Virus genome (UHGV): UHGV-1332412
Strand: one strand, 5' to 3'
DNA: 10,167 bases
Source: a virus
This document shows positions 6,398-6,745 of this stretch, in pieces (position 1 is the first letter of the stretch; each line of letters starts with the position of its first letter). The notes under the pieces were generated by a model. The model had not been told where the DNA came from, ran no database searches, and saw only the letters and a list, made by a program, of their open reading frames with translations. Made by a program: the position numbers and the translations under genes.

Positions 6398-6472
6398 TGG
6401 AGCGGGCAGCGGGAATCGAACCCGCATCATCAGCTTGGAAGGCTGAGGTAATAGCCATTATACGATGCCCGC
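6398..6472 (-). tRNA. tRNA-Gly (anticodon UCC)
   Basis: 75 nt including encoded CCA. Hand fold: acceptor GCGGGCA/TGCCCGC, anticodon stem TCAGC/GCTGA, loop CUUCCAA (U33, anticodon UCC, A37), T-arm GCGGG-TTCGATT-CCCGC. Resembles E. coli glyT by recall. Confidence 0.85.
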
Positions 6473-6475
6473 ATA

Positions 6476-6551
6476 TGGTGCCGACTACCGGAATCGAACT
6501 GGTGACCTACTGATTACAAGTCAGTTGCTCTACCTACTGAGCTAAGTCGGC
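6476..6551 (-). tRNA. tRNA-Thr (anticodon UGU)
   Basis: 76 nt including CCA. Acceptor GCCGACT/AGTCGGC, D-stem GCTC/GAGC, anticodon stem ACTGA/TCAGT, loop CUUGUAA (anticodon UGU), T-loop TTCGATT. One A:C mispair in the T-stem as folded by eye. Confidence 0.85.
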
Positions 6552-6553
6552 AC

Positions 6554-6630
6554 TGGACCGCCACCGGGGACTCGAACCTCGCACACTCAACTTAAAGGGT
6601 TGACGCTCTTTCCTGATGAGCTAGTGGCGG
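6554..6630 (-). tRNA. tRNA-like gene with non-canonical anticodon loop (CCUUUAA; nominal anticodon UUU/Lys but C at position 33)
   Basis: 77 nt including CCA, with only 1-2 nt between it and the flanking tRNAs. Perfect 7-bp acceptor stem CCGCCAC/GTGGCGG, D-stem GCTC/GAGC, perfect 5-bp anticodon stem TCAAC/GTTGA, T-loop TTCGAGT. Identity is uncertain because of C33 and one A:C mispair in the T-stem. Confidence 0.6.
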
Positions 6631-6631
6631 T

Positions 6632-6707
6632 TGGTGGCCCTTGCTGGATTTGAACCAGCGACCTGGCGATTATGAGTCGCTCGCTCTCACCACTGAGCTA
6701 AAGGGCC
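6632..6707 (-). tRNA. tRNA-Ile2 / Met-type (anticodon CAU), ileX/ileZ-like
   Basis: 76 nt including CCA. Acceptor GGCCCTT/AAGGGCC, anticodon loop CUCAUAA (anticodon CAU), T-loop TTCAAAT. Very similar by recall to E. coli ileX, the lysidine-modified AUA decoder. Formally it cannot be told from tRNA-Met by sequence alone. Confidence 0.82.
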
Positions 6708-6716
6708 GGGCGCAGG

Positions 6717-6745
6717 ATAATAACGTTACGAAATCAATGTTGCAA
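6717..6745 (-). promoter_or_regulatory. Candidate sigma70 promoter driving the tRNA array
   Basis: Minus strand: TTGCAA (6745..6740), 17-nt spacer, TATTAT (6722..6717). The predicted start is about 7-10 nt upstream of the first tRNA 5' end at 6707. Confidence 0.5.

Follow-up and report, generated by a model that had tools for sequence, protein, structure and literature searches.

A four-gene tRNA array with a likely promoter of its own between antiterminator Q and the lysis genes of a lambda-like prophage

Phages that carry Shiga toxin (Stx) genes, among them 933W, Sakai Sp5 and Stx2a_F349, hold a tRNA gene cluster, ileZ-argN-argO, between the antiterminator gene Q, with its late promoter pR' and terminator tR', and the late cargo and lysis genes. 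The gap between Q and lysis is likewise a tRNA cargo site (PMC3636060) in SfI, Sf6, ST64T, PS3 and P21, with Asn(GUU)/Thr(UGU), and in HK639, with Asn. Here we describe an array of four tRNA-type genes at this same site in the virus genome UHGV-1332412, within a stretch of 10,167 nt (the window; all coordinates refer to the whole of it) in which the tRNA cassette lies on the minus strand. Both array and promoter are borne out, and they represent a common version of a known kind of lambdoid-phage cargo.

As in the Stx-phage cluster, an ileZ-type gene followed by a gene on the argN scaffold is located between Q and lysis. The first gene matches ileZ at 76 of 76 positions, the second agrees with argN at 65 of 77, and the promoter has the same −10 element and discriminator. 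The window differs in slot 2, whose anticodon is UUU and not UCG, in the replacement of argO by Thr(UGU) and Gly(UCC), in having no stx, and in the structured trailer and terminator that follow. The Thr and Gly genes are base-for-base those of the K-12 operon thrU-tyrU-glyT-thrT-tufB, in the same order, and both promoters have a GC-rich discriminator; the window, however, lacks tyrU, thrT and tufB, has a spacer of 3 nt where the host has spacers of 8 nt and 116 nt, and shares no common flank with it. HK639 resembles the window in its downstream hairpins. The gene sets of HK639 and the SfI-type phages are not that of the window. Tight packing with spacers of a few nucleotides is also a trait of the T4 and T5 clusters, and the Lys-like gene of the window, akin to the T5 tRNA-Lys(UUU) that evades PARIS, differs from the host at the AriB site. 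Unlike T4 and T5, the window phage is temperate, and the genes of its cassette number four, two of them host-identical; nuclease resistance of its Lys-like gene is a candidate property.

ARAGORN and Rfam family RF00005 both find four minus-strand tRNA-type genes, in accordance with the initial annotation, which had described a four-tRNA array with this gene order, these anticodons and an atypical second gene. From 5' to 3' these are tRNA-Ile2 (6632–6707; anticodon CAU, Met/Ile2(CAT) in ARAGORN, assigned through its ileZ identity), the atypical tRNA-like gene 2, read as Lys(UUU) (6554–6630; Lys(TTT) in ARAGORN), tRNA-Thr(UGU) (6476–6551, with thrU identity) and tRNA-Gly(UCC) (6398–6472, with glyT identity). 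All exceed the RF00005 gathering score of 29 bits (72.5, 44.4, 73.8 and 64.9 bits, respectively, gene 2 being the lowest), stem pairing was checked directly, and CCA is encoded in all four. The array is placed between Q/pR'/tR' and an S21-type holin. Spacers between the genes measure 1 (a), 2 (gt) and 3 (tat) nt, within the 1–3 nt given earlier, and because they are this short, it is reasonable to infer a single precursor that would be processed into the tRNAs. A literature search found no paper describing this four-gene version, though it is routinely annotated; the terms ileZ, argN and argO mostly matched unrelated words.

Ahead of the array, consensus scanning and conservation identify a σ70-type promoter (6717–6745, minus strand), comprising a −35 element TTGCAA (6745–6740), a 17-nt spacer and a −10 element TATTAT (6722–6717). 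Its end lies 9 nt ahead of tRNA position +1 (6707), and it sits downstream of the pR'-like site and of a tR'-like terminator (6809–6844, minus strand, an inverted repeat followed by a T run); the near-consensus promoter that the initial annotation had put about 10 nt before the first tRNA, past the tR' hairpin, is thus found. The sequence from the −10 element to tRNA +1 reads as a GC-rich discriminator and short leader, CCTGCGCCC (6708–6716, minus strand). We assessed conservation in 118 related arrays from IMG/VR. TATTAT is present in 118 of 118, as is TTGNNN exactly 17 nt upstream (the −35 variants being TTGCAA, TTGCAG, TTGATT, TTGCGG and TTGCTA). The discriminator is 9–10 nt long and mostly GC-rich, with CCTGCGCCC itself in 73 arrays and GC-rich variants in most others. 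The sequence between the hexamers, by comparison, exists in 12 versions, some pairs of which match at only ~5 of 17 bases, and the DNA upstream of the promoter is unrelated between array families, some having coding sequence in place of tR' and some having no Q or tR' upstream at all. Arrays that are more diverged still retain TTGCxx-17-TAT(C/T)AT-9 nt.

A published start site bears on the same element. Differential RNA sequencing of a lysogen of enterohaemorrhagic Escherichia coli Sakai placed a primary start site at the homologous tRNA genes of the Stx phage (Sy et al. 2020, PMC7547250), and the Sakai ileZ promoter, TTGCAG-17-TATTAT-CCTGCGCCC-ileZ, has the same −10 element and discriminator as the window. 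We accept the promoter because of this mapping and the conservation, not because of the bare motif; homology thus supports a promoter belonging to the cassette itself, separate and independent of Q, as had been proposed. Its GC-rich discriminator resembles those of stable-RNA promoters, which suggests growth-rate or stringent control.

Marks of tRNA-Ile2 are a CAU anticodon (carrying lysidine made by TilS), the pairs C4-G69 and C5-G68, and likeness to ileX/ileY. Gene 1 has an acceptor stem GGCCCTT/AAGGGCC, containing C4-G69 and C5-G68, and agrees with K-12 ileX at 68 of 76 positions with the same anticodon loop; by sequence it qualifies as a tRNA-Ile2, for which lysidine modification is predicted. 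The Thr gene equals K-12 thrU (76/76) and the Gly gene equals glyT (75/75). The earlier description of these two as glyT/thrT-type sequences holds for Gly and for the host identity of Thr, but the latter is thrU (UGU) and not thrT (GGU). BLASTN against E. coli and Stx phages, the check proposed at the time, returned this tRNA identity without any shared host flank: matches to the host operon stop 1–2 nt past each tRNA (the alignments extend to 78 and 77 nt), and host flank or synteny (tyrU, the 116-nt spacer, thrT) is not present around the Thr and Gly genes. The three bases of the spacer TAT equal the first base past thrU and the last two ahead of glyT (chance ~1 in 64), a weak hint of descent from the host operon via internal deletion.

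Comparison with other phages reveals the array to be a mosaic. PPompW prophages match only through the end of gene 2 and then continue into an argO-like gene, while phi467 matches only Thr-Gly and the trailer, downstream of stxAB. In phi467 (locus L005, 1–1660) the Thr-Gly module is found ~510 nt after stxB, so the position of the tRNAs relative to toxin genes is not fixed. HK639 (locus L132, 2337–2492) has an Asn(GUU) gene after tR', then a decayed tRNA-Gly that still matches glyT without a change in its 3' half; the Thr-Gly module would therefore be old and able to erode. A diverged IMG/VR array (L206) comprises five genes, Ile2, scaffold, Thr, Arg(CCG) and Gly, with spacers of 1–2 nt. Genes evidently enter and leave such arrays at tRNA boundaries. 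Among diverged arrays, whose promoter regions share only ~51% identity, the thrU sequence is found in 33 of 42 Thr copies and the glyT sequence in 17 of 27 Gly copies, around Thr-Gly spacers of TAT, TAAT, AAA or AAT; Salmonella thrU and glyT have the same sequence. Because identity is retained both in diverged arrays and in Salmonella, it is uninformative on recency. Probably of host origin, the Thr and Gly genes form an old shared module, whose identity is kept either through conversion by the host gene or through selection for function with the enzymes of the host. The ileZ gene and the atypical gene belong to the phage lineage and are not host copies.

Gene 2 is far closer to argN than to lysT (47/79). 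It has 12 differences from argN; the five that fall in stems each leave pairing intact or strengthen it (G3-U70 to G-C, U7-G66 to C-G, U27-G43 to U-A, and the compensatory double change of G30-C40 to A-U). The anticodon loop changes from CUUCGAA in argN to CCUUUAA. Further oddities are C33, at a position that is a conserved U in the Rfam consensus, together with U73, C1-G72 and an A51-C63 mismatch common with argN. An E. coli-type tRNA-Lys(UUU) has U33 and A37 in a 7-nt loop, A73 and kinship to lysT; gene 2 instead has the loop C-C-UUU-A-A with C33, U73 and C1-G72, and its kinship is to argN. It is a derivative of the argN scaffold that is read as Lys(UUU) and may or may not decode. The exact anticodon arm occurs only in E. 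coli and Shigella flexneri in a scan of one genome per species. We also considered a mis-acylating Arg tRNA that reads Lys codons. C35 is an identity determinant for arginyl-tRNA synthetase, and this candidate was rejected, as C35 is gone from gene 2.

To place gene 2 among its relatives, we collected the slot-2 family by two further IMG/VR scans. The search patterns fixed the 5' part of the scaffold, and unbiased comparisons are accordingly those of the T arm, variable region and anticodon arm only. Array position 2 is always occupied by one scaffold bearing very different anticodon arms (loci including L150, L157, L202, L206, L217, L236, L143 and L165). The argN form keeps its CUUCGAA loop across ~35 variants, and argN is therefore a true decoder. 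A 73–74-nt lineage has the stem GCAAC/GUUGU and short loops (5–6 nt) of at least 14 kinds; other forms have an enlarged arm, and 66-nt forms without any anticodon arm persist behind two different promoters. In all, 68 distinct slot-2 sequences present 26 anticodon-loop strings, with loops of 5, 6 and 7 nt, and the T arm is far less variable in slot 2 (0.3–0.4 versus ~1.0 bits per column). Identity within the short-loop lineage is 98% in the body, 65% in the loop and 51% in the adjoining promoter region, such that the body appears constrained and the loop does not. The window gene 2 has the same acceptor stem and CAAC/GUUG anticodon-stem core as this lineage. When loop variation was compared with neutral drift, loci with differing loops usually had diverged flanks too; only 6 pairs have near-identical flanks, and mosaic recombination could account for these.

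The array is followed by a structured 3' trailer (6213–6391, minus strand), recognized by folding and by inverted repeats as three consecutive long hairpins (6391–6346, 6338–6266 and 6267–6213) whose arms contain perfect inverted repeats of 11, 16 and 9 bp. The 292 nt located 3' of the Gly gene have an RNA fold z-score of −6.4 relative to shuffled sequence. Hairpins 1 and 2 recur in HK639 (L132, 2489–2700) at 75% identity, with compensatory stem changes and again between Q and holin. Rfam gave nothing credible for the trailer, even at a permissive threshold. These features point to a conserved structured RNA or DNA element. A terminator scan places an intrinsic terminator (6165–6193, minus strand) at the close of the cassette, upstream of the holin; this or a close variant stands ~207 nt past the Gly gene in most related arrays. 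The cassette thus has, by sequence, both its own promoter (6745–6717) and its own terminator (6193–6165), each kept in relatives, and we infer the layout of a classical phage moron with predicted promoter and terminator activity.

We compared codon usage in the annotated prophage of E. coli strain 165 with that of 42 K-12 genes, a comparison that had been proposed for ACA, GGA and AUA. Relative to the host, AUA is used 2.2-fold in late and 4.2-fold in early genes, ACA 2.3-fold and 3.7-fold, and GGA 2.2-fold and 2.1-fold, so that all three are enriched 2–4-fold in phage genes, significantly in each case; they are the codons of Ile2, Thr(UGU) and Gly(UCC). The equivalent values for AAA are 0.99 (late) and 1.23 (early), and for AAG 1.37 and 1.25. 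In E. coli, these minor tRNAs are encoded by one gene copy (thrU, glyT) or two (ileX, ileY). Codon supply fits the Ile2, Thr and Gly genes, and an ACA bias has been reported for phage SfI (PMC3636060).

Taken as a whole, we think it probable that this is a self-contained cassette (promoter, four tRNA-shaped genes, trailer and terminator) of a lambda-like E. coli/Shigella prophage, working as follows. The σ70 promoter, with its GC-rich discriminator, would start RNA 1–6 nt before the first tRNA, and transcription of the cassette in the lysogen would therefore need no Q. Once the phage is induced, polymerase modified by Q at pR' would pass both terminators as well, running through the cassette into the lysis genes. 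Given spacers of 1–3 nt, the transcript would be cut into single tRNAs mainly by RNase P. Three products would be ordinary decoders of minor A-ending codons, Ile2 (AUA), Thr (ACA) and Gly (GGA). Gene 2, an argN-type scaffold with its anticodon arm remodelled to UUU, would either decode Lys codons, weakly or in an unusual way, or be a tRNA-shaped element that does not decode and is retained for some other reason.

Several observations weigh against this model. The promoter motif by itself is not above chance (7 promoter-like sites in 1.9 kb, with 2.4 expected), and start-site mapping is for the Sakai homologue only and not for this locus. AGA, AGG and CGG are enriched 3.8–6.5-fold in late genes, yet the phage has no Arg tRNA, and AAA and AAG are not enriched despite the presence of a 'Lys' gene; the set as a whole is thus not accounted for by codon supply. 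About one-third of prophage copies of the Thr, Gly and slot-2 genes carry changes, so selection in resident prophages would not be tight. The frequency of promoter-like motifs in this AT-rich gap, and the position of the array within the late transcription unit, would be expected if the tRNAs were made solely from pR' after Q antitermination, TTGCAA-17-TATTAT being a chance match or relic. We regard this as highly improbable: hexamers and spacing are fixed throughout the 118 arrays against a background of 12 spacer versions and unrelated upstream DNA, the architecture is retained in still more diverged arrays, a primary start was called for the homologous promoter in lysogen culture (PMC7547250), and some arrays have no upstream tR' or Q. 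Scarcely better placed is the idea that this phage recently captured its Thr and Gly genes from thrU-tyrU-glyT-thrT by illegitimate recombination, with loss of tyrU. Complete identity, the Thr-Gly order of the host operon and a TAT spacer fitting the thrU and glyT edges would all follow from it. Set against these are the want of a longer host flank, the occurrence of the same Thr-Gly module and downstream hairpins behind stx in phi467 (with a decayed copy in HK639), the many host-identical copies in diverged arrays with differing spacers, and the equal identity of the Salmonella genes. The first suggestion, capture of host tRNA genes, is thus half borne out: the sequence identity holds, but it does not show a recent event in this phage, which is improbable and which we set aside given the absent flank and a module shared across diverged arrays.

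The nature of gene 2 is a closer question, and sequence alone does not choose between an odd Lys decoder, a non-decoding tRNA-shaped element and a counter-defence RNA. RNase P recognises the acceptor/T-arm minihelix, and gene 2 could accordingly be a tRNA-shaped spacer, not decoding at all, that allows RNase P to free Ile2 at its 3' end and Thr at its 5' end from a precursor with spacers of 1–2 nt, the UUU being incidental. The multiplicity of loop strings, the enlarged arms and arm-less 66-nt forms (the latter behind two different promoters), the steadier T arm and the contrast between body, loop and promoter region in the short-loop lineage are all consistent with such a role. In the window lineage, on the other hand, the loop is regular, 7 nt long and contains U36-A37-A38, and the 5-bp stem is paired throughout, near-invariant in 116 copies; the argN lineage shows that the slot can hold a true decoder; plain deletion of the gene would achieve the same end; and conservation of the 5' half is partly by construction, through the seed patterns. 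We hold the spacer role to be a tentative but real possibility. A further proposal, which we judge rather unlikely, is that the cassette, or gene 2 at least, counters tRNA-cutting immune nucleases (PARIS AriB, P2 Old, PrrC) by supplying a decoy or a Lys(UUU) tRNA that resists cleavage, together with additional Thr(UGU). AriB cleaves E. coli tRNA-Lys and tRNA-Thr(UGU) in U36AAUC|A41, and U39A abolishes cleavage (PMC12409363); positions 36–41 of gene 2 are UAAGUU (G39, U41) in place of the host UAAUCA, a substitution confined to gene 2, as the Thr gene does not differ from that of the host. The lambda-excluding nuclease P2 Old cuts paired CNG motifs of the anticodon stem, chiefly in tRNA-ThrU (PMC12445682); where argN has CAG/CUG at this motif, gene 2 has CAA/UUG, by way of the compensatory change of G30-C40 to A30-U40. 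Lys codons are not scarce, leaving gene 2 unexplained by codon supply, and downstream of Q other lambdoid phages have genes for Asn(GUU) and Thr(UGU) (PMC3636060; HK639), these two and Lys(UUU) being published AriB targets. Against this, the Thr copy is thrU, retaining the AriB site and CNG motifs, and is thus sensitive; adding more of the host tRNA-ThrU protected little, if at all, against Old (PMC12445682); and in a published test E. coli tRNA-Lys failed to save phage from PrrC170. Charging of gene 2 is made doubtful by C33, U73, C1-G72 and its distance from lysT, and the 5–6-nt loops or missing arm of slot 2 in sister lineages argue against a decoder, although a decoy would still be possible. 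In its broader form, gene 2 would be one allele of a prophage tRNA-shaped scaffold with fixed acceptor, D and T arms and an anticodon arm left free or actively diversified, serving as a substitute resistant to, or a decoy for, these nucleases, which temperate phages encounter in E. coli; we consider this doubtful to a like degree. If true, the cassette would serve codon supply in part and counter-defence in part.

Cargo tRNAs downstream of Q have long been known in Stx and lambdoid phages, with a separate promoter already mapped, and the array itself adds little to this. Host-identical tRNA genes in phages should not be read as recent captures, as identity survives deep divergence of the surroundings. 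The slot-2 element, in which the body is conserved and the anticodon arm appears unconstrained, is the only part meriting experiments. Devoid of the published AriB and Old motifs, gene 2 is a candidate answer of a temperate phage to immunity that targets tRNAs, a subject studied until now almost entirely in virulent phages, T5 for example. If expressed in the lysogen, the cassette would alter the host supply of three minor tRNAs.

The surroundings of the cassette are a lambda-like late region, with the minus-strand order DUF968, RusA, Q, tRNAs, S21-type holin, DUF1327, lysozyme and Rz, and later Nu1 and gpA. Q (6902–7597, minus strand) matches PF06323 (Phage_antiter_Q, E = 8.6e-92), and the first lysis gene (5890–6105, minus strand) encodes an S21-type (class II) holin (PF04971, E = 1.4e-35). 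A consensus scan places a pR'-like late promoter, TTGCAA-17-TATATT (6890–6918, minus strand), over the end of Q; its position relative to those of lambdoid phages suggests that it is the pR' counterpart. Together with the tR'-like terminator it would yield a short RNA of ~70 nt. The predicted RNA (6886–6813, minus strand) has sub-threshold Rfam matches to isrK (22.7 bits, E = 0.015) and isrJ (24.5 bits, E = 0.041), Hfq-binding small RNAs of Salmonella prophages, and may be a by-product small RNA of the StxS/IsrK kind.

Of the arrangements seen in the IMG/VR hits, the one with these four genes is the most frequent. Across 6300–6850 the window shares 99.8% identity with a prophage of E. coli strain 165, in which tRNA-Ile (so called by PGAP), tRNA-Lys, tRNA-Thr and tRNA-Gly are annotated, as is Q. 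At least 80% of this interval is found in 377 of 5426 complete E. coli genomes and also in phages vB_EcoS-689R5, vB_EcoM-606R7 and PhiR47_1. The whole window is in none of the complete E. coli genomes (best match 89% coverage, 97.4% identity), as expected because a lambdoid phage is a mosaic.

Elsewhere in the window, an open reading frame of 130 amino acids (9583–9975, minus strand) is without a Pfam match, its sole match being PHROG 16082 (function unknown, E = 2.6e-84). On the plus strand, between Rz and Nu1, are a homologue of the Bor lipoprotein (PF06291, 4107–4448) and a DUF3950 reading frame (3598–3792), the location of the former presumably corresponding to that of bor in lambda.

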